This document shows positions 1 through 64,000 of a stretch of 64,000 bases of DNA, in pieces. The DNA lies in contig NC_083440.1 in the NCBI RefSeq assembly GCF_020745735.1, positions 27,423,278 through 27,487,277 on the forward strand, read 5' to 3'. The number at the start of each line of letters is the position of its first letter. Positions within the stretch are counted from its first letter, which is position 1. The notes under the pieces are model-generated. The model saw nothing but the letters and a program-made list of their open reading frames with translations. It was not told the origin of the DNA and made no database searches. A program made the translations under genes and the position numbers. The DNA is from Hemiscyllium ocellatum. Lineage: Eukaryota.

Positions 1-3000
1 GCTAACTATGGACACGGTAACTACCGATGCGGTAACTATGGACATGCTATCTATTGACATGGTAACTATGGACATGGTAACTATGGACACGGTAACTATG
101 GACACGGTAACTATGGACATGATAAACATGCACACGATTACTATGGACACGGTAACTATGGACATGCTAACTATAGACATGCTAACTATGGACATGATAA
201 TCATACACACGATAACTATGGACATGCTAACTATGGACATGATAAACATGCACACAATTACTATGGATACAGTAACTATGGACACGGTAACTATGAACAT
301 GGTAACTATGGACACAGTGACTATGGACACGATAACCATGCACACGCTAACATTGGACATGCTAACTATGGAGACAGTAACTATGGACTTGGTAATCATG
401 GACATGGTAACTATGGATGCGGTAACTATGGACACGGTAACTATGGACACGGTAACTATGGACGCGGTAACTATTGACACGGTAATTATGGACAGGGTAA
501 CTATGGATGCGGTAAGTATGGACGTGGTAACTATGGACACGGTAACTATGGTCACGATAATTAGGGATGCAATAATTATGTACATGGTAATTATGGACAT
601 GGTAATCATGGACATGGTAACTATGGACACAGTAACTATGGACACAGTAAATATGGACACGATAACAATGGACACAGTAACTATGGTCACGATAATTACG
701 GACGCAATAATTATGTACAAGGTAATTATGGACTTGGTAATCATGGACATGGTAACTATGGATGCGTTAACTATGGACACGGTAACTATGGGCACGGTAA
801 CTATGGTCACGATAATTACGGACGCGATAATTATGTACACGGTAATTATGGACTTGTTAATCATGGACCTGGTAACTATGGATGTGGTAACTATGGACAC
901 AGTAACTATGGGCACGGTAACTATGGGCACGGTAACTATGGTCACGATAATTACAGACGCAATAATTATGTACAAGGTAATTATGGACTTGATAATCATG
1001 GACATGGTAACTATGGATGCGGTAACTATGGACACGGTAACTATGGGCACGGTAACTATGGTCACGATAATTACGGACGCGATAATTATGTACACGGTAA
1101 TTATGGACTTGTTAATCATGGACCTGGTAACTATGGATGTGGTAAGTATGGACACAGTAACTATGGGCACGGTAACTATGACTACGGTAACTAGGGATAC
1201 AATAATTATGGACGCAGTAACTATGGACATAGTAACAATGGATTCAGTAACTACGGACACGGTAACTATGGATACAGTAACTAAGGACAAGTTAACTATG
1301 GACACGGGTAACTACCGTCATGGTAACTATGGACATGGTAATGATGGACACGATAATTGTGGACGCAGTAATTATGGACATGATTATTATGGACACAATA
1401 ATTATGGACACGGTAACTATGGATACAGTAAGTATGGATACAGTAAGCATGGGCAGGATAACTATGGACATGGTAACTATGGGCATGATAACTATGGACA
1501 CGATAATTATGGACACGGTAACTATGGACACAGTAACTATTGACATGATAACTGTGGACATGGTAACAATGGGCAAGATAACGATGGACACGATAATTAT
1601 GGAAAGGGTAACTATGGACATGATAACTATGGACACAGTAACTATGGACACGGTAACTATGGACACGGTAACTATGGAAATGGTAATTATGATCACGGTA
1701 ACGATGGACATGGTAACTATGGACAAGGAAACTAAGGACACAGAAACAATGGACAGGGTAACTATGGACACGATAATTGTGGATGCTGTAACTAAGGACA
1801 CAGTAACTATGGGGCCGGTAGCTTATGGACATGGTAACTATGGACAGAACAATTCTGAACACAGTAACTATGGACACGGTAACTATACACATGATAACTA
1901 TGGACACAGTAACTATGGACACAGTAACTATGGACACGGTAACTATGGACACGGTAACTATGGAAATGGTAATTATGATCACGGTAATGATGGACGTGGT
2001 AACTATGGACAAGGAAACTAAGGACACAGAAACAATGGACAGGGTAACTATGGACACGATAATTGTGGATGCGGTAACTATGGACACAGTAACTATGGGG
2101 CCGGTAGCTTATGGACATGGTAACTATGGACATAACAATTCTGAACACGGTAACTATGGACACAGTAACTATGGATACAGTAACTATGGACATGGCAACT
2201 ATGGACAAAATAATGGACATGGTAATTATGGATACGGTAAATATGAACACGGTAACTATGGACAGGGTAACTATGGACATGATAATTATGGATACGGTAA
2301 GTATGTATACAATAATTAGGGACATGGCAATTATGGACATTGTAACTATGGATTCGGTAAATATGGACATAGTAACTAAGGACAAGGTAACTATGGACAC
2401 GATAACCATGGACACAGTAACTATTGACACGGTAACTATGGACAGGGTAACTATGGACACAGTAAATATGGACATAGTAACTATGGAGAAGGTAACTATG
2501 GACACGGTAACAATGGACATGATAACCATGCACACGATTACTATGGACACGGCAAATATGGACATGGCAAATATGGACACGGTAACTATGGAAACGGTAA
2601 CTATGGACACGGTAACAATGGACATGATAACCATGCACACAATTACTATAGACACGGCTAATATGCACACGGCAAATATGGACATGGTAACTTGGTCACG
2701 GTAAATATGGACACGATAACCATGGACGCGGTAACTATTGACACAGTAACTATGGACACGATAACCATGCACACGGTAACCATGGACATGGTAACTATGG
2801 ACACGGTTACAATGGACAGGGTAAATATGGACACTGTAACTACGGTCACGATAATTACGGACGCGATAATTATGTACACGGTAATTCTGGACATGGTAAT
2901 CATGGACATGGTAACTATGGATGCGGTAACTATGGACACAATAACTATGGGCACGGTAACTATGGATACAATAATTATGTTCACGGTAACTATGGACACA

Positions 3001-6000
3001 GTAACAATGGATTCAGTAACTACGGATATGGTAACTAAGGACAAGGTAACTATGGACACAATAACCATGGACACGGTAATTATGGACACGATAATGATGG
3101 ACACAGTAACTATGGACACGGGTAACTATGGACATGCTAACTATGGACACAGTAACTATGGACACGGTAACTATGGACATGATAAACATGCACACGATTA
3201 CTATGGACACGGTAACTATGGTCACGATAATTACAGACGCGATAATTAAGTACACGGTAAGTATGGACATGGTAATCATGGACATGTTAACTATGGATGC
3301 GGTATCTATGGACACATTAACTGTGGGCACGGTAACTATTACTACGGTAACTATTGGCACGGGAACTATGACTACGGTAACTATGGATACAATAATTATG
3401 GACACAGTAACTATGGACACAGTAACAATGGATTCAGTAACTACGGACATGGTAACTAAGGACAAGGTAACTATGGACACAATAACCATGGACACGGTAA
3501 TTATGGACACGATAATTATGGACACGGTAACTATGGACAAGGTAACTATGGACATGCTAACTATGGACACAGTAACTATGGACATGATAAACATGCACAC
3601 GATTACTATGGACATGGTAACTATGGACACAGTAAATATGGACAAGATAACTATGGACACGGTAACTATGGACATAGTAACTATGGACATGATAACTGTG
3701 GACACGGTAACTATGGACACGGTAACTATGGACATGCTAACTATGGACATGGTAACTATGGACACGGTAACTATGGACATGCTAACTATGGACATGATAA
3801 ACATGCTCACGATAACCATGTACATGATATCTATGGACATGGTAAATATTGAGCCGGTAGCTATGGACACAGTAACTATGGACACGGCAAATATGGACAC
3901 GATAACTATGGACATGCTAACTATGGACATGATAACCATGCACACGCTAACTATGGACATGCTAACTATGGACACAGTAACTATGGACACGGTAACTATG
4001 GACATGCTAACTATAGACACAGTAACCAAGGACATGGTAACTATGGACATGGTAACTATGGGCACAGTAACTATGGACATGCTAACTATGGACATGATAA
4101 ACATGCACACAATTACTATGGATACAGTAACTATGGACACGGTAACTATGGACATGGTAACTATGGACACAGTAACTATGGACATGATAACCATGCACAC
4201 GCTAACTATGGACATGCTAACTATGGAGACAGTAACTATGGACACGGTAACTATGGACACGATAACTATGGAGACAGTAACTATGGACATGGTAACTATG
4301 GACACAGTAACTACGGACATGCTAACTATGGACATGCTAACTATGGATATGATAAACATGCACACAATTACTATGGATACACTAACTATGGACACGGTTA
4401 CTATGGATATGATAAACATGCACACGATTACGATGGACACCGTAACTATGGACACGGTAACTATGGACATGCTAACTATGGACACGGTAACTATGGACAC
4501 GGTAACTATGGACATGCTAACTATGGACACAGTAACTATGGACACGGTAGCTATGGACATGGTAAACATGCACACGATTACTATGGACACGGTAACGATG
4601 GACACGGTAACTATGGATATGATGAACATGCACACGATTATGATGGACACAGTAACTATGGACACGGTAACTATGGACATGCTAACTATGGACATGATAA
4701 CCATGCACACGCAAATTATGGACATGCTAACTATGGACACGGTAACTACCGATGCGGTAACTATGGACATGCTATCTATTGACATGGTAACTATGGACAT
4801 GGTAACTATGGACACGGTAACTATGGACACGGTAACTATGGACATGATAAACATGCACACGATTACTATGGACATGGTAACTATGGACATGCTAACTATA
4901 GACATGCTAACTATGGACATGATAATCATACACACGATAACTATGGACATGCTAACTATGGACATGATAAACATGCACACAATTACTATGGATACAGTAA
5001 CTATGGACACGGTAACTATGAACATGGTAACTATGGACACAGTGACTATGGACACGATAACCATGCACACGCTAACATTGGACATGCTAACTATGGAGAC
5101 AGTAACTATGGACTTGGTAATCATGGACATGGTAACTATGGATGCGGTAACTATGGACACGGTAACTATGGACACGGTAACTATGGACGCGGTAACTATT
5201 GACACGGTAATTATGGACAGGGTAACTATGGATGCGGTAAGTATGGACGTGGTAACTATGGACACGGTAACTATGGTCACGATAATTAGGGATGCAATAA
5301 TTATGTACATGGTAATTATGGACATGGTAATCATGGACATGGTAACTATGGACACAGTAACTATGGACACAGTAAATATGGACACGATAACAATGGACAC
5401 AGTAACTATGGTCACGATAATTACGGACGCAATAATTATGTACAAGGTAATTATGGACTTGGTAATCATGGACATGGTAACTATGGATGCGTTAACTATG
5501 GACACGGTAACTATGGGCACGGTAACTATGGTCACGATAATTACAGACGCAATAATTATGTACAAGGTAATTATGGACTTGGTAATCATGGACATGGTAA
5601 CTATGGATGCGGTAACTATGGACACGGTAACTATGGGCACGGTAACTATGGTCACGATAATTACGGACGCGATAATTATGTACACGGTAATTATGGACTT
5701 GTTAATCATGGACCTGGTAACTATGGATGTGGTAACTATGGACACAGTAACTATGGGCACGGTAACTATGGGCACGGTAACTATGGTCACGATAATTACA
5801 GACGCAATAATTATGTACAAGGTAATTATGGACTTGATAATCATGGACATGGTAACTATGGATGCGGTAACTATGGACACGGTAACTATGGGCACGGTAA
5901 CTATGGTCACGATAATTACGGACGCGATAATTATGTACACGGTAATTATGGACTTGTTAATCATGGACCTGGTAACTATGGATGTGGTAAGTATGGACAC

Positions 6001-8445
6001 AGTAACTATGGGCACGGTAACTATGACTACGGTAACTAGGGATACAATAATTATGGACGCAGTAACTATGGACATAGTAACAATGGATTCAGTAACTACG
6101 GACACGGTAACTATGGATACAGTAACTATGGACATGGTAACTAAGGACAAGGCAACTATGGACACGGGTAACTACCGTCATGGTAACTGTGGACATGGTA
6201 ATGATGGACACGATAATTGTGGACGCAGTAATTATGGAAATGATTATTATGGACACAATAATTATGGACACGGTAACTAGGACACGGTAATGATGGATAC
6301 AGTAAGTATGGATACAGTAAGCATGGGCAGGATAACTATGGACATGGTAACTATGGACATGATAACTATGGACACGATAATTATGGACACGGTAACTATG
6401 GACACAGTAACTATTGACATGATAACTGTGGACATGGTAACAATGGGCAAGATAACGATGGACACGATAATTATGGAAAGGGTAACTATGGACATGATAA
6501 CTATGGACACAGTAACTATGGACACAGTAACTATGGACACGGTAACTATGGACATGATAACTGTGGACATGATAACTATGGACATGGTAACTATGGACAA
6601 GGTAACTATGGGCACAGTAACTATGGAGACAGTAACTATGGACACGGCAACTATGGACACAGTAACTATGGACATAGTAATTATGAACGTGATAACTATG
6701 GACACGGTAACTATGGACACAGTAACTATGAACATGATAACTGTGTACACAGTATCTATGGACACGATAATTATGGACACGATAACTATGGACACGGTAA
6801 GTATGGACACAGCAACTATGAACATGATAACTGTGGACACAGTATCTATGGACACTGTAACTATGGACATGATAAATATGGACAGGGTAACTATGGACAT
6901 GATAACTGTGGACATGGTAACTATGGACATAGAAACTATGAACGTGATAACTATGGATACGGTAACTATGGACACGGTAACTATGGTCACGATAATTAGG
7001 GACGCAATAATTATGTACAAGGTAATTACGGACTTGGTAATCATGGACATGGTAACTATGGATGCGGTAACTATGGACACGGTAACTATGGGCACGGTAA
7101 CTATGGTCACGATAATTACGGACGCGATAATTATGTACACGGTAATTATGGACTTGTTAATCATGGACCTGGTAACTATGGATGTGGTAACTATGGACAC
7201 AGTAACTCTGGGCACGGTAACTATGACTACGGTAACTAGGGATACAATAATTATGGACGCAGTAACTATGGACATTGTAACAATGGATTCAGTAACTACG
7301 GACACGGTAACTATGGATACAGTAACTATGGACATGGTAACTAAGGACAAGGTAACTATGGACACGGGTAACTGCCGTCATGGTAACTATGGACATGGTA
7401 ATGATGGACACGATAATTGTGGACGCAGTAATTATGGACATGATTATTATGGACACAATAATTATGGACACGGTAACTAGGACACGGTAACTATGGATAC
7501 AGTAAGTATGGATACAGTAAGCATGGGCAGGATAACTATGGACATGGTAACTATGGACATGATAACTATGGACACGATAATTATGGACACGGTAACTATG
7601 GACACAGTAACTATTGACATGATAACTGTGGACATGGTAACAATGGGCAAGATAACGATGGACACGATAATTATGGAAAGGGTAACTATGGACATGATAA
7701 CTATGGACACAGTAACTATGGACACAGTAACTATGGACACGGTAACTATGGACATGATAACTGTGGACATGATAACTATGGACACGGTAACTATGGACAT
7801 GATAACTATGGACATGGTAACTATGGACATGGTAACTATGGACACAGTAACTATGGAGACAGTAACTATGGACACGGCAACTATGGACACAGTAACTATG
7901 GACATAGTAACTATGAACGTGATAACTATGGACACGGTAACTATGGACACAGTAACTATGAACATGATAACTGTGTACACAGTATCTATGGACACGATAA
8001 TTATGGACACGATAACTATGGACACGGTAAGTATGGTACACAGCAACTATGAACATGATAACTGTGGACACAGTATCTATGGACACTGTAACTATGGACA
8101 CGATAATTATGGACAGGGTAACTATGGACATGATAACTGTGGACATGGTAACTATGGACATAGTAACTATGAACGTGATAACTATGGATACGGTAACTAT
8201 GGACATGATAACTATGGACACGGTAGCTATGGACACAGTAACTATGAACATGATAACTGTGGACACAGTATCTATGGGCATGATAACTATGGACACGATA
8301 ACTATGGACACGGTAACTATGGACATGGTAACTATGGACATGGTAACTATGGACATGATAACTATGGACACGGTAACTATGGACATGGTAACTATGGACA
8401 TGATAACTATGGACACGGTAACCATGGACACAGCAATTCTGGACA
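1..8445. repeat. 15-bp minisatellite array (consensus GGTAACTATGGACAC/T), truncated by window start
   Basis: Continuous 15-bp periodicity with recurring variants (ACG/ATG/ACA, GTA/ATA/CTA). It decays at ~8430-8459 into unique sequence. Confidence 0.98.
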
Positions 8446-11082: not shown

Positions 11083-11691
11083 GGATCAGAAAACTATACA
11101 GCGCAGAACAGGCCCTGCATCCCTCTACGTTGCACCGACCCACGAACTCGTCTAAGCCCATCCCCCTACACTACCCCATCATCATCCATGGGCTTATCTA
11201 AGGACTGTTTAACTCTCCCTAATGTGGCTGTGTTCACTACATTAGCAGGTAGGGCCCTCCTCACCCTTCCCACTCTCTGTGTAAAGAACCTGCCTCTGAC
11301 ATCTGTCTGAAATCTATCACCCCCCAATTTGTAGTTATGTCCCCCTCGTAACAGCAGACGTCATCATCCTCAGAAACACACTCTCACTGTCCACCCTATC
11401 TAATCCTCTGACCATCTTGTATGTCTCCATCAAATCCCCCCACTTAACCTTCTTCTCTCCAATGAGAATAGCCCCAAGTCTCTCAGTCTTTCCTCATAAG
11501 ACATTCCCTCCAGACCAGGCAACATCCTGGTAAATCTCTTCTGCACCTTTTCCAATGTTTCCACATCCTTCCTATAATGCGACGACCAGAACTGTACACA
11601 ATATTCTGAGTGCAGCCGCACCAGCGTTTTGTATAATTGCAGCATGACATTGCAGCTCTGGAACTCAATCCCTCTACCAATAAAACCTAAC
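11083..11691 (-). mobile_element. CR1-like LINE, 3' part of a split host element
   Basis: Translates to GFIGRGIEF..MLQLYKTLVR.H.EYCVQFWS.HYRKDV..LEKVQKRFTRMLPGL (CR1 ORF2 C-terminus). 3' tail near 11083-11110. Confidence 0.92.
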
Positions 11692-11700
11692 AAACCTAAC

Positions 11701-13606
11701 AATGGGAAGGCTACAAACACAAACAGAGGATAACAAGGAGAGAAATAAGGAAGGAGAGGATCAACTATGAAGGTAGGCTCGCCAGTAATATTAGGAATGA
11801 TAGTAAAAGTTTCTTTCTATATATAAGAAACAAACAACAGGCAAAAGTAGACATTTGGCCATTTCAAACTGATGCTGGAAGCCTAGTGATGGGAGATAAG
11901 GAAAGAGCTGGAGAATTTAATACGCACTTTGCGACTGTCTTCACAGTGGAAGACATGAGTAATATCCCAACAATTAAAGGGATTCAGGGGGCCGAGTTGA
12001 GTATTGTTGCCATTATAAAAGAGAAAGTGCTAGAAAAGCTAAAAGGTCTTAAAATTGACAAATCTCCTGGCCCCGATGGGATACATCCTAGAGTTCTGAG
12101 GGAGGTGGCTGAGGAAATAGCAGTGGCATTGGTTGAGATCTTTCAAAAGTCACTGGAGTCAGGGAAACTCCTGGATGATTGGAGGATCGCTGTTGTAACC
12201 CTCTTGTTCAAGAAAGGATCAAGACAAAAGATGGAAAATTATAGGCCAATCTTGGTTGTTGGTAAAATTCTAGAATCCATCATTAAGGATGAGGTTTCTA
12301 AATTCTTGGAAGAACAAGTCAACATGGATTTAGTAAGGGGAGGTCATGCCTGACAAAACTGTTGGAATTCTTTGAAGAGGTGATAAATAGATTAGACTAG
12401 GGAAACCCAGTGGATGTGGTCTATTTAGACTTCCAAAAGGCCTTTGATAAGGTGCCACACGGGAGGCTGCTGAGCAAGGTGAGGGCCCATGGTGTTCCAG
12501 GTGAGCTACTGGGATGGACTGAGGATTGGCTGTCTGACAGAAGGCAGAGAGTTGGGATAAAAGGTTCTTTTTCAGAATGGCAGCCGGTGACAAGCGGTGT
12601 CCCGCAGGGTTCAGTGTTGGGGCCGCAGCTGTTCACATTATATATTAATGATCTGGATGAAGGGACTGGGGGCATTCTAGCGAAGTTTGCCGATGATACG
12701 AAGTTAGGTGGACGGGCAGGTAGTACTGAGGAAGTGGGGAGGCTGCAGAAGGATCTAGTCAGTTTGGGAGAGTGGTCCAGGAAATGGCTGATGGAATTCA
12801 ACGTGAGCAAATGCGAGGTCTTGCACTTTGGAAAAAAGAATAAAAGCATCGACTACTTTCTAAATGGTGAGAAAATTAGTAAAGCCAAAGTACCAAGGGA
12901 TCTGGGAGTGCAAGTCGAGGATTCTCTAAAGGTAAACATGCAGGTTGAGTCTGTGATTAAGAAAGCGAATGCAATGTTGTCATTTATCTCAAGAGGGTTG
13001 GAATATAAAAGCACCGTTGTGCTACTGAGACTTTATCAAGCTCTAGTTAGGCCCCATTTGGAGTACTGTGTCCAGTTTTGGTCCCCACACCTCAGGAAGG
13101 ACATACTGGCACTGGAGCGTGTCCAGCGGAGATTCACACGGATGATCTCTGGAATGGTAGGTCTAACATACGGGGAACAGCTGAGGATCCTGGGATTGTA
13201 TTCATTGGAGTTTAGAAGATTAAGGGGAGATCTAATAGAAACTTACAAGATAATACATGGCTTGGAAAGGGTGGACACTAGGAAATAGTTTCCGTTCGGC
13301 GAGGAGACTAGGACCCGTGGACACAGCCTTAGAATTAGAGGGGGTCAATTCAGAACAGAAATGCGGAGACATTTCTTCAGCCAGAGAGTGGTGGGCCTGT
13401 GGAATTCATTGCCACAGAGTGCAGTGGAGGCCGGGACGCTAAATGTCTTCAAGGCAGAGATTGATAAATTCTTGATGTCACAAGGAATTAACGGCTACGG
13501 GGAACATGCAGGTAAGTGGAGTTGAAAGGCCCATCAGCCATGATTGAATGGCGAAGTGGACTCGTTGGGCTGAATGGCCTTACTTCCACTCTTATAGTCT
13601 TATCGT
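11701..13606 (+). mobile_element. 5'-truncated CR1-like LINE (ORF2 reverse transcriptase, decayed)
   Basis: [65 protein letters not shown] is broken by stops and deletions; 3' tail gggctgaatggcc...tagtcttat. Confidence 0.96.
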
Positions 13607-13816: not shown

Positions 13817-13914
13817 TCTAATGCCGTGAATGTCCCCCAGGTGAGGACTGGCTCCCTTCTGTATGCACCCACCCTCCCTTGGTTAGTCACAACGAGGTTG
13901 ATTTAAAGACGGTC

Positions 13915-18232: not shown

Positions 18233-18354
18233 CTAGCATGGACTTTGAGGGGCTGAGTGGCCTCCTTCTCTTGTCCCAGACTGTTCCAAATAGCTGTATC
18301 ACCTCTGGAGGGTGTGGATTGGGAATTGATCCTGGCTGCTTTCCCCTGATACAG

Positions 18355-37325: not shown

Positions 37326-37329
37326 AATT

Positions 37330-50900: not shown

Positions 50901-53525
50901 GGGCACAGTAACTATGATTACGGTAACTAGGGATACAATAATTATGGACACAGTAACTATGGACATAGTTACAATGGATTCAGTAACTACAGACACTGTA
51001 ACTATGGATACAGTAACTATGGACATGGTAACTAAGGACAAGGTAACTATCGACATGGTAACTACCGTCATGGTAACTATGGACATGGTAATGATGGACA
51101 TGATAATTGTGGACGCAGTAATTATGGACACGATTATTATGGACATGGTAATTATGGATACGGGAATTATGAACATGGTAACTATGCACATGGTAACTAT
51201 GGACACAATAATTATGGACACGGTAACTATGGATACAGTAAGTATGGATACAGTAAGCATGGGCAGGATAACTATGGACATGGTAACTATGGACACGGTA
51301 ACTATGGACATGATAAACATGCACACGATTACTATGGACACGGTAACTATGGACATGGTAAATATGGAGCCGGTAGCTATGGACACAGCAACTATGGACA
51401 TGCTAACTATGGACACGGCTAATATGGACACGATAACTATGGACATGCTAACTATGGACACGATAACCATGGACATGCTAACTATGGACACGATAAACAT
51501 GCACACAATTACTATGGATACAGTAACTATGGACACGGTAACTATGGACATGGTAACTATGGACACAGTAACTATGGACACGATAACCATGCACACGCTA
51601 ACATTGGACATGCTAACTATGGACACAGTAACTATTGACACGATAACTATGGACATGATAAACATGCACACGATTACTATGGACACGGTAACTATGAACA
51701 CGGTAACTATGGTCACCATAATTACGTGCATGGTAAATATGGACTTGGTAATCATGGACATGGTAACTATGGATGCGGTAACTATAGGTACAGTAACTAT
51801 GGACAGAGTAACTGTGGTCACGGTAAATATGGACACGATAACCATGGACGCGGTAACTATTGACACGGTAATTATGGACAGGGTAACTATGGATGCGGTA
51901 AGTATGGACATGGTAACTATGGACACGGTAACTATGGTCACGATAATTAGGGACGCAATAATTATGTACATGGTAATTATGGACATGGTAATCATGGACA
52001 TGGTAACTATGGACACAGTAACTATGGACACAGTAAATATGGAAACGATAACAATGGACACAGTAACTATGGTCACGATAATTACGGACGCAATAATTAT
52101 GTACAAGGTAATTATGGACTTGGTAATCATGGACATGGTAAATATGGATGCGGTAACTATGGATGCGGTAACTATGGACACGGTAACTATGGGCACGGTA
52201 ACTATGGTCACGATAATTACGGACGCGATAATTATGTACACGGTAATTATGGACTTGTTAATCAGGGACCTGGTAACTATGGATGTGGTAACTATGGACA
52301 CAGTAACTATGGGCACGGTAACTATGACTACGGTAACTAGGGATACAATAATTATGGTCGCAGTAACTATGGACATAGTAACAATGGATTCAGTAACTAC
52401 AGACACGGTAACTATGGATACAGTAAATATGGACATGGTAACTAAGGACAAGGTAACTATGGACACGGTAACCACCGTCATGGTAACTATGGACATGGTA
52501 ATGATGGACACGATAATTGTGGACGCAGTAATTATGGACATGATTATTATAGACATGGTAATTATGGATACGGGAACTATGGACATGGTAACTATGCACA
52601 TGGTAACTATGGACATAATAATTATGGACACGGTAACTAGGACACGGTAACTATGGATTCAGTAAGTATGGATACAGTAAGCATGGGCAGGATAACTATG
52701 GACATGATAACTATGAACACGATAATTATGGACACGGTAACTATGGACACAGTAACTATTGACATGATAACTGTGGACATGGTAACAATGGGCAAGATAA
52801 CGATGGACACGATAATTATGGAAAGGGTAACTATGGACATGATAACTATGGACACAGTAACTATGGATACGGTAACTATGGACATGATAACTGTGGACAT
52901 GATAACTATGGACACGGTAACTATGGACATGATAACTATGGACATGGTAACTATGGACACGGTAACTGGACACAGTAACTATGGAGACAGTAACTATGGA
53001 CACGGCAACTATGGACACAGTAACTATGGACATAGTAACTATGAACGTGATAACTATGGACACGGTAACTATGGACACAGTAACTATGAACATGATAACT
53101 GTGTACACAGTATCTATGGACACGATAATTATGGACACGATAACTATGGACACGGTAAGTATGGACACAGCAACTATGAACATGATAACTGTGGACACAG
53201 TATCTATGGACACGGTAACTATGGACACGATAATTATGGACAGGGTAACTATGGACATGATAACTGTGGACATGGTAACTATGGACATAGTAACTATGAA
53301 CGTGATAACTATGGATACGGTAACTATGGACATGATAACTATGGACACGGTAACTATGGACACAGTAACTATGAACATGATAACTGTGGACACAGTATCT
53401 ATGGGCATGATAACTATGGACACGATAACTATGGACACGGTAACTATGGACATGGTAACTATGGACATGGTAACTATGGATATGATAACTATGGACACGG
53501 TAACCATGGACACAGCAATTCTGGA
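38955..53525. repeat. Complete ~14.6-kb 15-bp minisatellite array (~970 units)
   Basis: Same unit as 1-8445, and ends in the same terminal sequence (accatggacacagcaattctggacatcatttggacacag). Confidence 0.98.
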
Positions 53526-56500
53526 CATCATTTGGACACAGACAAAATTAAACAAGTCAAAAAGGGAAAAAAAAGAATGAAATGGAACCTATTGTGAGGG
53601 AATGGGAACCAAAGAGAAACCGAATGAGAAATAGGTTTGGCTGTTTAATGAACAGAAATCAGAACATCGCAAAGACCCACAATCTGAGGAGCACAAGGAT
53701 GGAGATGATTCATTCTGGATTGGTTAGGTTGGAGTGGAATCCCTCCAGTGTGGAAACAGGCCTCTCGGCCCAACCAGTCCACTGACCAGCATCTCACCCA
53801 GACCCATCCTCTTCCCCTATCCCTGTAACCGCGCCTTTCCCATGGCTAACTCAACTCAACCCAGACATGCGTGATCCCTCAGGGCAATCCAGCGTGGCCA
53901 ATCCACCCAGGCTGCACCTCTTCAGACTGCCGGCTGCTGTAGTTTGGGTGCTGAATGAGCTGTGGTACCAGGGGCCCTCCCACCTACACAAACTGTAAAG
54001 GTGACCGCACCTAGCACCAAGATAAGGTGTCCGAGGACTCACAGATGTAAGTGGGAAGGGTCTGGGCAAGGGGAGGAGACGTGAGCTCTGCTCCGGCCAT
54101 GGACCGAAGGTGCACGTTGAATTCAATTTCGGGGGCAAGTCTTCCCCATTAAGACATTGTGGTGAAAACCTGTCTGATTCACTCGTGCGCTGTGGGTGAG
54201 GGAAGTTTGCCATCCTTCCCTGGTCTGGCCTACATGTGACTCCACACCCTCCCCAGCAGTGTGGTTGACGCAGAACTGCCCTCTGGGTAATTAGGGATGG
54301 GTAACAAATGGCAGCCCAGCTAGCGATGCCGCCAACCTGTGAACATATTCAAGTAAATTTCTCCAGGCTTGGTAAACATCCTTTGCCAACTCTACAAATT
54401 CAGTTCCCAGTTCAACAGCTCGGTCAGACGCAGCTCAGATTTGTTAGTTGCTTCTGATGAGTTGTATGAGGTGTTCACCTGAGATTGTCACTGTTTATTC
54501 ACTTGTTACGGACTGGGGAAGGTATACAGTCACAGAACCTTTTCAGAAACAGGCCATTCAGCTAACTGTGCCAAGCCAGCCCTCTGAAAGATGTCCCACA
54601 CTGCCCAATCTTCAGGACCCCACCCTTACCATGGGCAATCCCACCTATTCCCCGTACACAACAGCAAATCCTACACAGCTGCAGATTTCTGGACTGCGGA
54701 AGGAAACTCGGAGAGACAAACGAAGAGTGTGCTAACCCCATACACCCTCTCACACACATTCACGCTCTCTCTCACACTCACACATGCACACATACTCCCT
54801 CACAAAAACTCACGCACACATACACTCACACACACAGACATACTCTCTCTCATACACACAGGCACAGACACACACACTTTCTCTCTTACACACACACACA
54901 GACACCCACACTTCTCTCACACCCACTCATGCACACACACACACTCACACAGACACACACACACTCTGANNNNNNNNNNNNNNNNNNNNNNNNNNNNNNN
55001 NNNNNNNNNNNNNNNNNNNNNNNNNNNNNNNNNNNNNNNNNNNNNNNNNNNNNNNNNNNNNNNNNNNNNNNNNNNNNNNNNNNNNNNNNNNNNNNNNNNN
55101 NNNNNNNNNNNNNNNNNNNNNNNNNNNNNNNNNNNNNNNNNNNNNNNNNNNNNNNNNNNNNNNNNNNNNNNNNNNNNNNNNNNNNNNNNNNNNNNNNNNN
55201 NNNNNNNNNNNNNNNNNNNNNNNNNNNNNNNNNNNNNNCACAATCCCAACCTCTCCTCTGCGGTTAATTGAATGAAGCAGTAAGTGTAAACACAGCTCAC
55301 ACTGCCATCCAGTGCCTCATTCCTCAAAAGCTAGCAATACCCTCCTGGCCCAGAGACAGGACAGCGATTGGATGAGATGAGTTTTAATCAACACCTTCCA
55401 TGACCATCGGCTCCTGAGGCAAGGCTTGAACCAGAAATGTCTGGCCCAGGCGTAGGGGCACCATGACTGGGACACGAGGATGGACCCTATTTGTCAGCAT
55501 TGAAAGGCTGCTCGGAGCTGAGACCAAAGACGGAAGAGCATTGGGAGAGGGTGCAGAAAAGTAACCGGTTCCTAACCCCTCAAGGAGTACATGAGTCAGC
55601 AAGGTGTTTCGACCAACCTGTGGTAGGCACGGGGCTATGAGCAAACATTGGAGAGAAAGAGGCGGGGAAATACACTCAGAAGGGGATGGCTCTGAAATGC
55701 TAAATTACCCGTAAGGCTAAGGGATGTGTAGGTTAGGGTGGGTTGGCCATGCTAAATTACCCATAGTGTTCAGGGATGTATAGGTTAGGGTGGATTAGCC
55801 ATGCTAAATTACCCCATAGTGTTCAGGGATGTGTAGGTTAGGGTGGATTGACCATGCTAAATTACCCATAGTGCTCAGGGATGTGCAGGTTAGGATGGAT
55901 TGGCCATGCTAAATTACCCATAGTGTTCAGGGATGTGTACGTTAGGGCGGATTGGCCATGCTAAAATACCTCCATAGTGTTCAGGGATGTGCTGGTTAGG
56001 GTGGATTGGACATGCTAAATTACCCCATAGTGTTCAGGGATGTGCAGGTTAGGGTGGATTGGCCATGCTAAATTACCCATAGTGCTCAGGGATGTGCAGG
56101 TTAGGGTGGAATGGCCATGCTAAATTACCCATAGTGCTCAGGGATGTGTAGGTTAGGGTGGTTTGGCCATGCTAAATTACCCCTCATGGATCAGAGAACT
56201 ATACAGCGCAGAACAGGCCCTGCATCCCTCTACGTTGCACCGACCCACGAACTCGTCTAAGCCCATCCCCCTACACTACCCCATCATCATCCATGGGCTT
56301 ATCTAAGGACTGTTTAACTCTCCCTAATGTGGCTGTGTTCACTACATTAGCAGGTAGGGCCCTCCTCACCCTTCCCACTCTCTGTGTAAAGAACCTGCCT
56401 CTGACATCTGTCTGAAATCTATCACCCCCCAATTTGTAGTTATGTCCCCCTCGTAACAGCAGACGTCATCATCCTCAGAAACACACTCTCACTGTCCACC

Positions 56501-56805
56501 CTATCTAATCCTCTGACCATCTTGTATGTCTCTATCAAATCCCCCCACTTAACCTTCTTCTCTCCAATGAGAATAGCCCCAAGTCTCTCAGTCTTTCCTC
56601 ATAAGACATTCCCTCCAGACCAGGCAACATCCTGGTAAATCTCTTCTGCACCTTTTCCAATGTTTCCACGTCCTTCCTATAATGGGGCGACCAGAACTGT
56701 ACACAATATTCTGAGTGCAGCCGCACCAGCGTTTTGTATAATTGCAGCATGACATTGCAGCTCTGGAACTCAATCCCTCTACCAATAAAACCTAACAAAC
56801 CTAAC

Positions 56806-58715
56806 AATGGGAAGGCTACAAACAAAAACAGAGGATAACAAGGAGAGAAATAAGGAAGGAGAGGATCAACTATGAAGGTAGGCTAGCCAGTAATATTAGG
56901 AATGATAGTAAAAGTTTCTTTCTATATATAAGAAACAAACAACAGGCAAAAGTAGACATTTGGCCATTTCAAACTGATGCTGGAAGCCTAGTGATGGGAG
57001 ATAAGGAAATAGCTGGAGAATTTAATACGCACTTTGCGACAGTCTTCACAGTGGAAGACATGAGTAATATCCCAACAATTAAAGGGATTCAGGGGGCCGA
57101 GTTGAGTATTGTTGCCATTATCAAAGAGAAAATGCTAGAAAAGCTAAAAGGTCTTAAAATTGACAAATCTCCTGGCCCCGATGGGATACATCCTCGAGTT
57201 CTGAGGGAGGTGGCTGAGGAAATAGCAGTTGCATTGGTTGAGATCTTTCAAAAGTCACTGGAGTCAGGGAAAGTACTGGATGATTGGAGGATCGCTGTTG
57301 TAACCCTCTTGTTCAAGAAAGGATCAAGACAAAAGATGGAAAATTATAGGCCAATCTTGGTTGTTGGTAAAATTCTAGAATCCATCATTAAGGATGAGGT
57401 TTATAAATTCTTGGAAGAACAAGTCAACATGGATTTAGTAAGGGGAGGTCATGCCTGACAAAACTGTTGGAATTCTTTGAAGAGGTGATAAATAGTTTAG
57501 ACTAGGGAAACCCAGTGGATGTGGTCTATTTAGACTTCCAAAAGGCCTTTGATAAGGCGCCACACGGGAGGCTGCTGAGCAAGGTGAGGGCCCATGGTGT
57601 TCGAGGTGAGCTACTGGGATGGACTGAGGATTGGCTGTCTGACAGAAGGCAGAGAGTTGGGATAAAAGGTTCTTTTTCAGAATGGCAGCCGGTGACAAGC
57701 GTTGTCCCGCAGGGTTCAGTGTTGGGGCCGCAGCTGTTCACATTATATATTAATGATCTGGATGAAGGGACTTGGGGGGGGCATTCTAGCGAAGTTTGCC
57801 GATGATACGAAGTTAGGTGGACAGGCAGGTAGTACTGAGGAAGTGGGGAGGCTGCAGAAGTATCTAGTCAGTTTGGGAGAGTGGTCCAGGAAATGGCTGA
57901 TGGAATTCAACGTGAGCAAATGCGAGGTCTTGCACTTTGGAAAAAAGAATAAAAGCATAGACTACTTTCTAAATGGTGAGAAAATTAGTAAAGCCAAAGT
58001 ACAAAGGGATCCGGGAGTGCTAGTCGAGGATTCTCTAAAGGAAAACATGCAGGTTGAGTCTGTGATTAAGAAAGCGAATGCAATGTTGTCATTTATCTCA
58101 AGAGGGTTGGAATATAAAAGCACCGTTGTGCTACTGAGACTTTATCAAGCTCTAGTTAGGCCCCATTTGGAGTACTGTGTCCAGTTTTGGTCCCCACACC
58201 TCAGGGAGGACATACTGGCACTGGAGCGTGTCCAGCGGAGATTCACACGGATGATCTCTGGAATGGTAGGTCTAACATACGGGGAACAGCTGAGGATCCT
58301 GGGATTGTATTCATTGGAGTTTAGAAGATTAAGGGGAGATCTAATAGAAACTTACAAGATAATACATGGCTTGGAAAGGGTGGACACTAGGAAATAGTTT
58401 CCGTTCGGCGAGGAGACTAGGACCCGTGGACACAGCCTTAGAATTAGAGGGGGTCAATTCAGAACAGAAATGCGGAGACATTTCTTCAGCCAGAGAGTGG
58501 TGGGCCTATGGAATTCATTGCCACAGAGTGCAGTGGAGGCCGGGACGCTAAATGTCTTCAAGGCAGAGATTGATAAATTCTTGATGTCACGAGGAATTAA
58601 GGGCTACGGGGAAAATGCAGGTAAGTGGAGTTGAAATGCCCATCAGCCATGATTGAATGGCGGAGTGGACCCGATGGGCTGAATGGCCTTACTTCCACTC
58701 TTATAGTCTTATGGT
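56806..58715 (+). mobile_element. CR1-like LINE, copy 2, with an extra frameshift near 57772
   Basis: Paralog of 11701-13606; gggacttggggggggcattc versus gggactgggggcattc. Confidence 0.95.
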
Positions 58716-59260
58716 CTAACACACCGTATACCTTCTTAACAGCACTATCCACCTGGGTGGCAACGTTCAGGGATCTATGTCCATGGACTCCAAGATCTCT
58801 CTGCACATCCACACTCCCAAGAATCTTTCCATTGACCCAGTTTTCTGCCTTCCTGTTATTCTTCCCAAAGTGAATCACCTCACATTGAGCTGCATTGAAC
58901 TCCATTTGCCAACTTTCAGCCCAATCCCTACAGTTTATCCAGGTCCCCTGCAACCTGTAACATTCTTCCACAATGTCCACTCCTCCAGTGTCGTTTGCAA
59001 ACTTACTGACCCCTCCACCTCGGCCTGCGTCTCAGTCATTTACAGAAATGACAAACAGCGGTGGTCCCAAAACAGATCCTAGTGGCACCCCACTAGTAAC
59101 CGGACTCCGGACTGGATATTTTCCATCAACCACCACTCGCTGCCTTCTTACAGAAAGCCAGTTTCTAATCCAAACTACAAAATCCCCCTCAATCCCATGC
59201 CTCTGCATGTTCTCCAACAGCCTACCATGTGGAACCTTATCAAAAACTTTACTGAAGCAA
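58716..59260 (-). mobile_element. Host CR1-like LINE 5' part, longer than in copy 1
   Basis: Continues into RT motifs FSKVFDKVPH and VPLGSVLGPPLF. Its 3' part is at ~56185-56796. Confidence 0.88.
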
Positions 59261-60831
59261 AGGCAGGGAAGCGGAAGTGAGGGATTTTGGATCGGATTGA
59301 ACGGTGGAGCAGGGCTGGAGGGGACAAAAGGCCCCCTTTCTATTTCTGAGGGTCCCATCTAATGCCGTGAATGTCCCCAGGTGAGGACTGGATCCCTTCC
59401 TTATGCACCCACCCTTCCTTGGTTAGTCACTACGAGGTTAATTTAAAGACGGTCCCTTGCAGAGTCACGGGATCCTACGGCTCGGAAACAGACCCTTCAG
59501 CCCAACACGTCTGTGCTGACTGTAATCCCAAACCAAGCTATTCCCACCTGTCTGCTCCTGGCCCACGTCCCTCCAACCCTTTCCTATTCATGTCTCTGTC
59601 CTTATCCAAAAATGTCTTTTAAACGTTAGAATGTACCCACGGCCACCACTTCCTCAGGAAGGTCATTTCACATATGAACTACTCTCTGCGTAAAAGTAAA
59701 TGTGTCCTCATGACAGTTATCATTCACACAATCTATCCCCCTTATAATTTTACAATCCTCTATAAGGTCACCCCTCATCCTCTGACTCTCCAGGGAAAAC
59801 AGCCCCAGCCTGTCCAGCCTCTCCCCAGCCTATCTAGCTCAAACCCTCCAACCCCGGCAACATCCTGGTAAATCCCTTCCAACCCCCTCTCCAGTTTAAT
59901 AATCTCCTTCCTGGAACAGGGCAACCGGAACTGGACACAGTGCTCCAGACGGGACCTCACCAATGTCCTGTACAACCCCACCATAATGTCCCAAACTCCT
60001 ACACTCAACGGCTGAGCAATGAAGGCTAGTGTGCAATACGCCTTCTTCACCCCCTGACTACATGACACAAACTTCAAAGACTGATGTACCTGACCCCCCT
60101 CTGTCTGTCTGCCCTACAACACTACCCAGGGCCGTACCATTAACTGTAAAAGTCCTGCCCTTTATCTTTCACTCCCTTTCTCATGGTCTTTCCTTTAAAA
60201 GGAACTATTTCCCCAGGCTCTCTTCAATCAACAGTGTTACTGAACATGGGTCAAATATCTNNNNNNNNNNNNNNNNNNNNNNNNNNNNNNNNNNNNNNNN
60301 NNNNNNNNNNNNNNNNNNNNNNNNNNNNNNNNNNNNNNNNNNNNNNNNNNNNNNNNNNNNNNNNNNNNNNNNNNNNNNNNNNNNNNNNNNNNNNNNNNNN
60401 NNNNNNNNNNNNNCACATGCACGTGTATATATATATAGACACATACTCACATGCATGCACACATACGTATATACACACGCACACAGACACACATGCACAT
60501 ATATATACACACGCGCACGTATATATGCACACACAGACACACGCGCACATATATACACACACGCATGCACGTATATATACACACAAACGTATATACACAC
60601 AGACACACACACGTATTTATATATACACACAGACNNNNNNNNNNNNNNNNNNNNNNNNNNNNNNNNNNNNNNNNNNNNNNNNNNNNNNNNNNNNNNNNNN
60701 NNNNNNNNNNNNNNNNNNNNNNNNNNNNNNNNNNNNNNNNNNNNNNNNNNNNNNNNNNNNNNNNNNNNNNNNNNNNNNNNNNNNCATACACGCATATACA
60801 CACACACTCTCACACACAGTCACACAAACAG

Positions 60832-60847
60832 ATGAGAAACAGGAGAT
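60832..60847 (+). CDS. Tentative start micro-exon (MRNRR-W) of B7-like gene copy 2
   Basis: ATG AGA AAC AGG AGA T|GTAAGT; perfect donor, and phase 1 fits the leader exon. Confidence 0.35.
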
Positions 60848-61583
60848 GTAAGTGAAAAAGGTGACCGGCCGATCAGTCCCTGAATTGTTCACAAAGAGCA
60901 GACAGACTGAGTGGTGCTGCTGTTGTGAGGCAGGCACAGGTCAGCGTCGATGATGGAAATGGTCCAGTCACTTTCACAGTCCTTCAGTTCGCAGAGTGGT
61001 CCAGAGTCTGGGGCTCTGATACCTTCGGACCGGGGTTGAAGGCAGAGTGAGAGGGCATCCTTTCGTTTCCTTACGGCACCCTGAGTGAGAGAGGTTCCTC
61101 CTTTACCTGCCCCACAGGGGTAGCGAGGGGATAATCATCTATCTGTGATCTTCACAGAGGGAGCTAACGCTCAGACCAAGGCTGGTGCGCACAAGTCCCA
61201 CAAGAAAACTCCAGTACAGTTGAAACTGGCCTTGTATTCTGTTACGGGAAAACCATAAAATGTATCGATAACTGACAGAGAGGCTGTTGTGTCTTTCTGT
61301 CTCTCTCTCTCTTTTTCTCTGTCTCTCTCTGTTTTTCTCTCTCTGTTTCTCTCATTCTCTCTCCCTTTACCTCTCTCACTCTTCCCCCCCTCTCAGTGTC
61401 AGTCTCCTTCTCTTCCCCTCTCTCTGCCTCTTGCTGTCAATCTTGCCGTCTGTCTCCATATTTCTTGTCAGTATCTGTCTCTCTCTCTCTACATCTCTCT
61501 CTTTCTCCCTTCCCCTCGCACTCTCTCTTTCTCCTTCTCTCTTTATCTCTGTCTCTCCCTCCACATCTCTCTCTCTCCCTGTA

Positions 61584-61614
<31 letters not shown>

Positions 61615-61930
61615 TTTCTCCAATTCTCACACTATCTCTGTCTCTCCCTCACTTTTCTGGCTCTCTTCCCCTCTCTCTCTTTCTCTCTGTCTGCCTGCCT
61701 GTCTGTTTGCTTCTCTCTCTCACTCTATCTCTATCTCTCTCTGACTCTCTCTCTCTCTATCTGCCTGTTTGTCTCTCTCTCTCTCTCTCTCTCTCCCCCC
61801 CCCGACATTCTGTCTCTCTCACTCTCCCATATCTCTTGTAATTTCTCGCTCCTTCCATTTCTCACCCACTCTCCCATTAATTATTGTTCCTGCTATGTTC
61901 TGATTTTTTTTCTCTCTCTCTCCTCTTTAG

Positions 61931-62002
61931 GGATTAATTTAAATGGGAAAAAAGAAAAGACATTCCTGATTATAATGCTACTAAGTTTTCCACCTATATC
62001 AG
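61931..62002 (+). CDS. Signal-peptide exon, B7-like gene copy 2 (xINLNGKKEKTFLIIMLLSFPPIS)
   Basis: Same splice sites and frame as 16411-16482. Confidence 0.72.
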
Positions 62003-62269
62003 GTAAGACAAATTTGTGTTTCAAAACCATGAAAATTATCAGAATTTCACAGCACAGAGAGAGCACATCTAATCCCGAACCACTGAGTAAACGCTCGGTA
62101 TTAGTAAAACGTGGCCAAACTGACAGGCCCATCTCGTGTTTACTGCTTATCAATAACTCCCATGTCTTCATTATCATAACAAAGATGCAGGACAGGGTGA
62201 TGCGTTGTGACTGAACGGTGTGGGAGGTCCTGGATGTTATCCTGAACCAAGGCTCCCTCTGGCTCTGTC

Positions 62270-63740
62270 CTAGCCCACCAATACTGGGATTTCCTGTGGC
62301 CCACTTTATTACAATGAAAACACCAGGGCTTTTGATCTTCTCTGTCCCCCTCAAAGGTTTCTTTTTTACCCTGGGGTAAGGTCTCCCTGGGATCTACCCT
62401 TCCCTTTCCACACCAGGATTTCTCTTTGTCCCAGTTTCTCTCCCTCCTGGACTGAAATCGATTCTGGAAGTCAATCCGTGTTTTATGGACCAGCCCATAC
62501 CCATCAGCCCCTTCAGCTGCTAACCTGACTGTTTTAACCCTCTGTTCTGCCCCATGAGCTTACACGACATCCACACTGAGACTACCCTCAGCCTTTATCT
62601 CCAGCCTTTTCAACTCACCTTCCTTTTTAAGTGTCAGGTTGTGAAGTTTAAGAGCTCTCTCTATTTCATTCTCTGCCCTCTCCCTTTTTCCCTTTCTTCT
62701 GCTTTTAATTGTAAACCAAATCGTTTCATTTCTGCTGCCCTTTCCTGATCTCTCGCCTCTAACTGGAGCTGTTCCATTTGTAATTGAATCCTTGCCATCT
62801 CTATAGATGCTGAGGGTTTCTCCAGCAATTGGAAATGCTGAGCTGCCGCTGGAATTCTCTCTCCTTTCCTCACAGAACCAGGCAATCCAAATTTCAGCTT
62901 CTCCGCTCATTCCCGCAACTTTGTCTCACTCACCTTTTGCAAACCTTCTAACGTCACCGAATCCACATCCAGAAAACCTTTGGTGACTAAAAGAGCCATT
63001 ACTCTCCCAAGCTTAGTCCACCCAACCAAACCGACACCCGAAATATAGACACTAGCACCGACCACTCGCTGTTTAAAATCCAGGACGAGCCCCCACAATC
63101 TGTTATGGATGAGGCCAGACCACTCAAAACATTCTTAACCAGGAAGACCAGACCATAACTTTGCAATCTGTTTCAGTAAGTGTACAGTGAAAATTACCCG
63201 GAGGAAGTTAGTGAGGTTGACGACCAGGGTGTAGAACAGACAAAGATTTATTCACAAAATTACACATTGAAACACAAAATAAAGACCCCTGACAGAACTC
63301 AGTCGATCCAAACTAGACTTCATCATGTTGTTCCAAATACCCACAACCGTCCCAATAAGCAAAACTTTAAAACCCTTTAAAACCCAGTACAGAGGGAACA
63401 CATGTGGACAGGCTGAAGTTAGACAGAGAGGCAGAGTTTCCACACAGCTCCCTGTTGAATTCCCAACCAGTTCTCGACTGAACTGAACTGCTCAGCTAGA
63501 GAGCAGACCAATCCCCTTTCATTATACAGGTCACTCCTAGAACATGACCACTTGGCCTAAAGGCTCATCTGTTTCCATAGAAACAAAAGGCCTCTCCAAA
63601 CCCTTCCCATCTCTGTACCAAACCAGCCTGATCGGAGCCCGGCCTGGTATATTACCCCCTCTCCCTCTGAAATACATCCAGGGCAGAGTCTCCCTGAGCC
63701 AAGGGACAGCTTTGGATAAAGAGGGACTAGCTTTGTGCCA
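62270..63740 (-). mobile_element. Truncated Gypsy-like element, copy 2 (LTR ~63101-63740, PBS 63078-63095)
   Basis: Paralog of 16760-18232. Confidence 0.78.
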
Positions 63741-63862
63741 CTAGCATGGACTTTGAGGGGCTGAGTGGCCTCCTTCTCTTGTCCCAGACTGTTCCAAATA
63801 GCTGTATCACCTCTGGAGGGTGTGGATTGGGAATTGATCCTGGCTGCTTTCCCCTGATACAG

Positions 63863-64000
63863 CTGCAATGGATAAAGTCGCTGACGTTGGAGGGACCGTG
63901 ACACTCCCGTGTCAGGTCGGGAATGTCACTATGTCCCAGGCCACTGTATACTGGCAAAAACGCCTGGAAAAGAAAGTCTTGTTCTATTGGAAGAATGGGA
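63863..64000 (+). CDS. IgV exon of B7-like gene copy 2 (partial, runs off window)
   Basis: Appears identical to 18355-18492. Confidence 0.9.

Follow-up and report, generated by a model that had tools for sequence, protein, structure and literature searches.

The window analysed here, 64,000 nucleotides of the Hemiscyllium ocellatum genome (contig NC_083440.1, positions 27,423,278 to 27,487,277), raises the question of what kind of tandem unit, if any, joins its IgV gene, its GPCR gene, an endogenous retrovirus (ERV) and long minisatellites. The explanation that best fits our data, to which we assign a probability of roughly 0.7, is a tandem segmental duplication of the multiallelic, low-copy kind, in which a block of ~45 kb is repeated in a hemiscylliid carpet shark of bamboo or epaulette type. 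It would resemble the human RCCX module, have its breakpoint within the IgV gene and be maintained by unequal crossover and gene conversion. In this view the locus is a copy-number-variable duplication of an ordinary kind and no new genetic element.

A direct duplication with a 45-kb period

Masked self-BLAST of the 64-kb window showed that the segment at 8,441-18,492 recurs in direct orientation at 53,523-64,000, a period of ~45 kb. One full unit and 10.5 kb of a second are visible, and between the two direct copies lie an intact antisense GPCR gene, a defective ERV and a 14.5-kb minisatellite (Table 1). A sequence-only reading of this DNA had reported the recurrence and the common terminus of the 15-bp array before each copy; both were confirmed, as the terminal units of the two arrays also match (8,038-8,353 and 53,165-53,480, 99.4%). 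The copies have the features of a segmental duplication (>1 kb, >90% identity, direct, adjacent), extending over 10.5 kb at 97.2-97.6% identity.

In a global alignment, copies A and B differed by substitution at 259 of the 9,382 columns compared (2.8%) and by 20 indels, including a clean one of 432 bp at 13,816/58,926, where copy B has retained an additional RT-bearing piece (58,926-59,357). Outside simple repeats, 189 of 7,798 columns differed (2.4%; 96 transitions, 93 transversions), and the period was 45,082 bp at the array end versus 45,508 bp at the window end. Divergence was patchy, ranging from 1.0 to 4.9% across eight blocks (chi-square 51, p 9e-9), which is the pattern expected from gene conversion or from units of mixed age. 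Dating by a pedigree rate of 7e-10 per generation gave ~2e7 generations, which we judged implausibly old and dropped; we therefore give relative ages only, with 3.0% between the ERV LTRs versus 2.4-2.8% between units.

Table 1. Features of the window.
Feature	Position	Strand	Evidence or remark
15-bp minisatellite array 1, start beyond window, non-coding	1..8445	.	tandem-repeat scan
Copy A of twice-seen segment	8441..18492	+	masked self-BLAST
Copy B, ends at window edge	53523..64000	+	masked self-BLAST
Collinear match	8441-9866 / 53523-54969		96.2%, masked self-BLAST
Collinear match	10134-13816 / 55239-58925		98.5%, masked self-BLAST
Collinear match	13817-14726 / 59358-60260		95.6%, masked self-BLAST
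Collinear match	15292-18492 / 60785-64000		95.3%, masked self-BLAST
LINE RT fragments, both strands, presumably CR1-type	11430..13817	.	Pfam and ORFs; 432-bp indel at 13816
Signal-peptide exon, copy A	16411..16482	+	AG..GT, phase 1-1; E 6e-9 vs P0001 residues 40-63
Decayed LTR-retroelement-like remnant, intron before V exon	16620..18300	-	primer-site and LTR-edge motifs that we take to be of LTR-retroelement type; no Pfam match; right edge approximate
IgV exon, intact, phase 1-1	18355..18684	+	V-set E 2.8e-14 (Pfam)
TG-rich simple repeat with GIY-YIG fragment at ~20220-20660, presumably Penelope-type	18750..21230	.	Pfam
17-bp minisatellite, ~75 units	21264..22529	.	tandem-repeat scan
GPCR exon 2, open up to stop codon	23554..24455	-	7tm_1 E 2.7e-20 (Pfam)
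GPCR exon 1, N-terminal 42-bp repeats and TM1 start	25268..25592	-	phase 1; E 8e-19 vs P0007
Defective class I-type ERV	29666..38487	-	Pfam and LTR comparison
15-bp minisatellite array 2, 14.5 kb, non-coding	38960..53525	.	tandem-repeat scan
Copy B exons: signal peptide; V exon	61931-62002; from 63863	+	V exon: 0 differences from copy A in 138 bp

The GPCR segment is probably present at low, variable copy number

The GPCR segment was examined in contigs from four DNA samples of two studies, one of these samples possibly being the window's source; 28 of the 31 listed contig records were used and three divergent ones excluded. Contig depth is not copy number, and it is expressed here relative to a baseline of contigs of dispersed LINE copies. 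With hand-picked, pre-filtered baseline rows, depth over the segment was 2.4-2.7, 2.6-2.7, 4.0-4.1 and 3.5-4.2 times baseline in the four samples; with all baseline rows kept, the ratios were 1.83, 2.47, 1.97 and 1.98 relative to the median, and 2.7, 2.8, 3.7 and 3.6 relative to the lower quartile. Haplotype-specific baseline contigs would halve these ratios and bring samples X1 and X2 near single-copy. At 24,761-24,837, X1 contained a version with seven differences at a depth of 6.1 beside contigs totalling 13.8, and the X6/X2 depth was 0.34-0.68 on seven background rows versus 0.57-1.08 on five segment places, overlapping at 0.57-0.68. No sample contig spans the whole stretch. Several differences from the window recurred in each of the four samples, a pattern that a difference between populations would also produce.

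As contigs cover the segment at 1.8-4.2 times the single-copy baseline, the GPCR is probably co-amplified at low, variable copy number (~2-4), in keeping with the earlier supposition that it occurs in more than one unit. For two samples we estimate ~2-3 copies in each haploid genome and for the remaining two ~2-4; the number of blocks seems to differ among animals, within a range of roughly two to four. These depths could also arise if the duplication were partial and fixed at two copies, running only from array to V exon, with dispersed paralogous segments or a biased baseline accounting for the excess over the GPCR. Only 10.5 kb is seen twice, the most conservative baseline puts three of the four samples near 2x, and the GPCR family is very large. 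However, the excess also lies over non-coding unique flanks (22,878-23,681, 25,630-26,025 and 26,942-27,678), on contigs with at most five differences, and distant GPCR paralogues (66% protein identity) cannot supply depth on such near-identical DNA; we consider this explanation unlikely.

The unit carries part of a single-IgV gene

The window holds only part of the IgV gene, namely the signal-peptide and V exons, each of which is intact and flanked by canonical splice sites in copies A and B alike; the 138 bp of V exon visible in both contain no difference. Among full-length proteins, its nearest relatives come from carpet sharks and consist of a single IgV, a stalk and a TM, the most similar being the H. 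ocellatum "PD-L1-like" protein P0134, with 99 of 109 residues of the IgV exon identical. When the stalk, TM and tail of P0134 were searched in the window, the best match had an E of 0.13, against 6e-9 for the signal-peptide control, and the masked runs at 28,154-28,338, 30,458-30,589, 38,135-38,273 and 38,345-38,478 could conceal a short exon. The best candidate for a TM-exon start in 18.7-39 kb, at 21,232, was rejected, as its score was equalled or exceeded by 135 of 1000 shuffled profiles and it had no match to the closer homologue P0134. A 32-bp repeat at 28,931-29,116 bore a faint, non-significant likeness to the stalk (E 0.64).

Four carpet-shark proteins annotated "PD-L1-like" or "MOG-like" (XP_060709458.1, XP_072420661.1, XP_043540858.1 and XP_059498857.1) have V identities of 91%, 82%, 69% and 57% to the window gene. 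These single-IgV proteins share its signal-peptide exon and form one protein cluster per species; three of the four have a stalk and TM and the fourth ends after the stalk, whereas neither part was found in the window copy. An IgC domain is absent from all three full-length relatives inspected (P0134, P0001 and P0002), and there was no second Ig ORF among the inspected window ORFs of at least 100 aa. Among solved structures in the PDB, the best match was the PD-L1 IgV (E 5.5e-11), followed by CD276, MXRA8, MOG and BTN2A1, and the ESM Atlas returned generic V-set, CD276-like and MOG-like clusters. A profile search of 1.84 billion representatives ranked P0002 first and P0134 fifth, the rest being mostly unnamed multi-Ig proteins, and the 150 listed matches included no large family of close IgV paralogues.

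By domain content, the window gene shares the B7-type IgV domain of PD-L1 and CD276, but its relatives lack the IgC domain with which true shark PD-L1 is described in the relevant sections of PMC12151841. Because these relatives have a single IgV without IgC, and the window yielded no stalk, TM or tail exon, the Ig gene is, as far as its sequence goes, not a classical B7 ligand, and the claim that a costimulatory-ligand gene is co-amplified was not supported. We place the probable unit breakpoint within the IgV gene, 3' of the V exon; internal units would then carry a promoter-to-V half gene, and a complete gene would be found elsewhere, with the last unit as its probable site.

The GPCR belongs to a large shark family

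The two exons of the GPCR form an intact frame of 408 codons in total. GPR139 is the nearest characterised receptor to this rhodopsin-class 7TM protein, at neither high identity nor one-to-one orthology: a PDB search at 1e-8 returned nothing, and at 0.01 the best match was human GPR139 with 35 bits only (E 9e-8). In contrast, most of the listed shark proteins named "probable G-protein coupled receptor 139" are 63-72% identical to it, with 425-537 bits. Given these scores, we infer that the GPCR is likely a member of an expanded sister group rather than a GPR139 orthologue. At E 1e-20 or better the database contained 2012 relatives, and those listed are shark proteins from 11 species. The window protein departs from 13 of 153 family-conserved positions (median 4; 6 of 120 matches reach 13), and six of eight listed exon-2 differences alter a residue.

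We found no description of the shark GPR139-like family in the literature covered, mostly open-access papers; a term search of the accessible text of PMC8455134 and PMC11979771 returned no mention of it. In the relevant part of PMC8455134, the whale shark paper states a paucity of GPCRs in cartilaginous fishes, and against that statement a family with 2012 relatives is the larger prize of this locus.

Is the amplification selected?

Two readings give the module a function. In the broader one, the half gene, its 5' exons intact and its membrane anchor left behind, would encode a secreted single-IgV decoy of a B7/PD-L1-like ligand specific to carpet sharks, with the module as its copy-number-variable source, and modules bounded by minisatellite and ERV would be one of the routes along which the shark GPR139-like family expands. 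We regard this as a long shot; if true, individual sharks would differ in checkpoint-decoy and orphan-receptor dosage. Amplification selected for GPCR dosage, or for an IgV decoy secreted through intron read-through or splicing to the Thr-rich frame of array 2, is improbable. The GPCR frame and both pairs of signal-peptide and V exons are intact, but six of the eight listed GPCR exon-2 differences are non-silent, the 13 departures exceed the family median, and low divergence around the V exon continues across non-coding LTR DNA. An AG at 38,929 fits the phase of the V donor and is followed by 210 open codons of repeat, yet its pyrimidine content is below our threshold, and of 44 acceptor-like sites that score better, 5 likewise open at least 100 codons, so splicing of V into array 2 was rejected as not above background. 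What we take to be an ETS/IRF-like motif at 15,359 is altered in copy B. If the half gene proposed above were expressed, it would yield a soluble B7-like decoy with dosage variation, which is testable.

The ERV and the proposed exchange between units

The ERV LTRs (29,666-30,760 and 37,330-38,487, in direct orientation) differ at 24 of 791 columns and match at 95.6% by self-BLAST (29,666-30,457 vs 37,330-38,130). Between them are pieces of gag p30, RT, RNase H and env, interrupted by stops, frame changes and large deletions; the longest minus-strand ORF has 260 codons and the RT match spans profile positions 109-201 of 205. Its Gag_p30, RVT_1, RNase H and TLV_coat matches and two LTRs suggest kinship with fish class I (gamma/epsilon-like) ERVs, from which it differs in being heavily deleted and in lacking a target-site duplication, the bases flanking the outer LTR ends being different. 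Such a provirus may be the scar of LTR-mediated exchange between units, or of a flanking deletion. In the duplication that we favour, copy number would change by unequal crossover between units, which would likely pair at the 15-bp arrays and at the LTRs of the ERV; gene conversion would patch the copies, and the GPCR would be carried as a passenger.

The human RCCX module (STK19-C4-CYP21-TNX), as described in the pertinent sections of PMC8362596, is a tandem module present in 1-3, rarely 4, copies at 96-98% identity. Those sections support a likeness in being a gene-bearing, low-copy tandem module with whole beside truncated genes and an ERV inside; here the whole gene is the GPCR, and the IgV gene, in which no stalk, TM or tail exon was found, is the truncated one. 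For the shark module we propose the mechanisms described there for RCCX, unequal crossover and gene conversion. The two differ in that there is no homology, the genes are other ones, and the shark unit is larger, with a multi-kilobase minisatellite between units. Tandem gene clusters of cartilaginous fishes have been surveyed (bioRxiv 2025.06.08.657570), and the accessible sections of that survey describe no RCCX-like modules. The locus would offer a concrete RCCX-like copy-number-variable module in a cartilaginous fish, and an example of an orphan GPCR from a very large shark family gaining copies as a passenger.

A true macrosatellite, with tens of 45-kb units head to tail homogenised by concerted evolution, is very improbable. 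The human examples D4Z4, DXZ4, RS447, RNU2 and CT47 have 3-6-kb units, mostly in 5-100 and up to ~100 copies, according to the relevant passages of PMC3599962. Like the shark block, their units are arranged head to tail and may include a gene, and individuals differ in how many they have, as seems to be so in the shark. The window likewise contains one complete kilobase-scale unit and a partial second in direct tandem layout, with the same array terminus and short near-identical stretches such as the V exon (0 of 138). However, the shark unit is 45 kb, the estimated 2-4 copies fall below the typical range, no single contig exceeded a ratio of 5.8, and units differ patchily by 1-5%, so the earlier label "macrosatellite-like" is not supported.

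Minisatellite arrays, masked runs and the assembly

Joining of two haplotypes or of mis-corrected reads in tandem is highly improbable: although the arrays contain long near-identical higher-order blocks (1 mismatch in 819 bp), where assemblers err, and the transition/transversion ratio is only ~1, the 432-bp indel is clean, divergence of 2.4-2.8% is more than 10 times the 0.2% mean diversity of the epaulette shark (PMC10587355), and GPCR-segment depth was at least 1.8 times baseline in all four samples. From divergence and depth we conclude that the duplication is real and that joined haplotypes are not supported, as the sequence-only reading had argued from the substitutions and the indel. 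Nine N runs occur in the window, eight of them 132-269 bp long and adjoining CA/TA-rich DNA; given these neighbours, and two pairs at corresponding places in copies A and B, the runs are likely masked sequence rather than assembly gaps.

The repeats of array 1 span 3-8,431 (~562 units) and those of array 2 span 38,982-53,513 (~970 units). Array 1 has its own higher-order repeats of 4.7-4.8 kb, and those of array 2 are 5.4-5.6 kb at 99.6-99.8% identity; as these recent repeats differ between the arrays, their structure indicates that both are recombining. Long array ORFs (up to 2047 codons) were ruled out as genes because the unit composition makes those frames stop-poor and the arrays shift frame, at 10 of 17 and 6 of 21 irregular steps, such that no single frame is open along them. 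The most variable columns of the 15-bp unit are CpG sites.

The repeated segment

Self-BLAST with both 15-bp arrays masked joined 8441-18492 (copy A) to 53523-64000 (copy B, cut by the window end) in four collinear blocks of 95.3-98.5% identity with a repeat period of 45.1-45.5 kb, bearing out the sequence-only reading that 8.45-18.49 kb recurs at 53.53-64.0 kb. The same 15-bp array end precedes each copy, and comparison of the units of both arrays upheld the shared terminus that had been proposed. The substitutions and 432-bp indel reported at that stage are real, as global alignment of the copies contained 259 substitutions across 9,382 columns, along with 20 indels of up to 432 bp. When simple repeats were removed, 189 of 7,798 positions (2.4%) carried substitutions. 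Divergence is patchy: across eight blocks it runs from 1.0% up to 4.9% (chi-square 51, p 9e-9). An RT fragment sits within the additional 432 bp of copy B, so the indel falls within an old LINE piece, which we take to be CR1; another fragment in the window is presumably Penelope. A 52-bp minisatellite of ~9 units, which also shows higher-order repeats of 105 and 211 bp, has equal length in both copies.

Features in the window
Feature	Position	Strand	Remarks
52-bp minisatellite, copy A	10592-11078		
52-bp minisatellite, copy B	55697-56183		
Signal-peptide exon	16411-16482		canonical phase-1 splice sites
IgV exon	18355-18684		canonical phase-1 splice sites
GPCR, two exons	25592-25268, 24455-23554	minus	408 codons, open
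ERV	29666-38487	minus	Gag p30, part of RT, RNase H, env matches

The Ig gene

Copy B contains the same signal-peptide exon as copy A, and the first 138 bp of V are identical. The top solved-structure match of the V domain is the PD-L1 IgV (E 5.5e-11), followed by CD276, MXRA8, MOG and BTN2A1, and by sequence the domain is B7-like. Close relatives were found in carpet sharks only (four proteins among five matches at E 1e-8 or better), with V identities of 99/109 (P0134, an H. ocellatum "PD-L1-like" protein), 89/108, 75/109 and 58/101. In the three full-length relatives the signal peptide is followed by a single IgV, a stalk of 20 residues, a TM and a short tail, and an IgC domain is absent from all three; true PD-L1 has IgV and IgC, sharks included, according to PMC12151841. 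The stalk, TM and tail of P0134 had no match in the window (best E 0.13) while its signal peptide, used as a control, matched at E 6e-9, so the unit carries just the 5' half of the gene, provided that none of four masked runs conceals an exon. The proposal of a B7 costimulatory-ligand-like gene holds for the IgV domain; the IgC domain and the TM that mark B7 ligands are missing, the four masked runs aside. The half gene is probably a by-product, and a complete gene may stand at the end of the array of units.

One candidate TM start was dropped, as 135 of 1000 shuffles scored as high. The translation of a 32-bp repeat at 28931-29116 faintly resembles the stalk exon of a related IgV protein (E 0.64). 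The AG at 38929 fits the phase of the V-exon donor and leads into 210 open codons of a repeat rich in Thr, Met and Asp (38930-39564); as an acceptor for splicing from the V exon it does not exceed background. The signal-peptide/V intron of both copies holds an older antisense LTR-element remnant (16620-18300), on which Pfam found no match. Upstream of the signal-peptide exon, a motif that we assume to be ETS/IRF-like is intact in copy A (15359) and altered in copy B (about 60845).

The arrays and the ERV

The 15-mer arrays contain about 560 (array 1, before copy A) and 970 units (array 2, before copy B). Their 2,000-codon ORFs occupy the two frames with only 1-3 stops per array, irregular steps shift the frame in 10 of 17 and 6 of 21 cases, and CpG positions are the most variable columns. 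These stop-poor frames, frame shifts and CpG variability rule out coding, and the arrays are non-coding. Array 1 has higher-order duplications of 4,725 and 4,845 bp, array 2 has others of 5,457-5,631 bp, and all are 99.6-99.9% identical; blocks common to both arrays are shorter and 96-99% alike. Because the recent duplications are private to each array, both were probably remodelled after the units split.

Stop codons, frameshifts and extensive deletions disrupt the ERV (longest ORF, 260 codons). Its two LTRs show 24 differences over 791 columns (3.0%), about the unit-to-unit distance. No target-site duplication was found in the bases outside both LTR ends (29660-29666, 38487-38495), which points to LTR-mediated exchange or a flanking deletion. 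A 21-bp minisatellite (29279-29664) adjoins the left LTR and does not resume on the right.

Copy number and origin of the repeat

Eight sequencing runs from one organism, representing four samples and two studies, contain 64-72% of the words of 22530-27680. Depth was taken from contigs only, with one run per sample.

Contig depth in four samples; ratios express contig depth, not copy number
Sample	Depth, unique parts	Baseline	GPCR segment/baseline	Alternative, vs median	Alternative, vs lower quartile
First	15-26	7.7	2.4-2.7	1.83	2.7
Second	70-158	41.5	2.6-2.7	2.47	2.8
Third	40-103	21.1	4.0-4.1	1.97	3.7
Fourth	40-77	13.3	3.5-4.2	1.98	3.6

The baseline used contigs of dispersed LINE copies touching the stretch (8, 21, 8 and 7 values, from rows chosen as low-copy), and the ratios used 28 of 31 listed records, excluding three divergent ones. 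The alternative baseline used all non-zero rows, thereby admitting high-copy LINE contigs. Between two of the samples, X6/X2 depth was 0.34-0.68 on seven background rows versus 0.57-1.08 on five segment places. The GPCR segment is thus probably multi-copy, at a low and probably variable number estimated from contig depth, and the ratios in all four samples, read with caution, support the earlier suggestion that the GPCR is co-amplified.

We favor, at a probability of about 0.68, a segmental duplication in tandem whose breakpoint would fall within the IgV gene. The arrays and LTRs would act as pairing sites, unequal crossover would alter the number of copies, additional ones lying in tandem, gene conversion would blur them, and the GPCR would be a passenger. 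Such a repeat would work like human RCCX, to which it has no homology and which PMC8362596 describes as 1-3 segments that carry complete as well as truncated genes and an internal ERV, with unequal crossover plus conversion. Elasmobranch genomes commonly contain clusters of tandem genes (bioRxiv 2025.06.08.657570).

The depth ratios would halve if the baseline contigs were haplotype-specific. A two-copy partial duplication is the leading competitor, yet an unlikely one. A selected decoy or dosage module is more doubtful still. The macrosatellite-like character first proposed is very improbable, since macrosatellites have many units (PMC3599962), a feature that the shark repeat lacks at its estimated copy number, and the low depth ratios speak against a long one. 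An assembly artefact joining haplotypes is just as improbable, in line with the initial reading, given a multi-copy GPCR segment by contig depth and a divergence of 2.4-2.8% versus the epaulette shark diversity of 0.2% (PMC10587355).

The GPR139-like family

The GPCR has relatives in 2012 clusters at E 1e-20 or better; among the 120 matches listed, 118 are named, 11 shark species are represented and 117 are called GPR139. Its best PDB match, human GPR139, scores only 35 bits. It departs at 13 of 153 conserved positions (kin median 4; 6 of the 120 listed matches as high) and, on this comparison, is slightly more diverged than its kin. Summed contig depth on the family motifs (23562-23733, 24078-24249) reached thousands of times baseline in all four samples, which is not a copy number. 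We found no account of this shark family in literature searches, which are weak on subscription journals, or in term searches within individual papers, and its size is a more surprising lead than the repeat.

Contigs of the GPCR intron (25057-25223, 24585-24932) differ from the window by about 4-9% in several samples, hinting at an older paralogous segment. The GPCR N-terminus (25452-25664) consists of 42-bp repeats rich in N-glycosylation sequons, and similar repeats occur in P0007, a Stegostoma relative.
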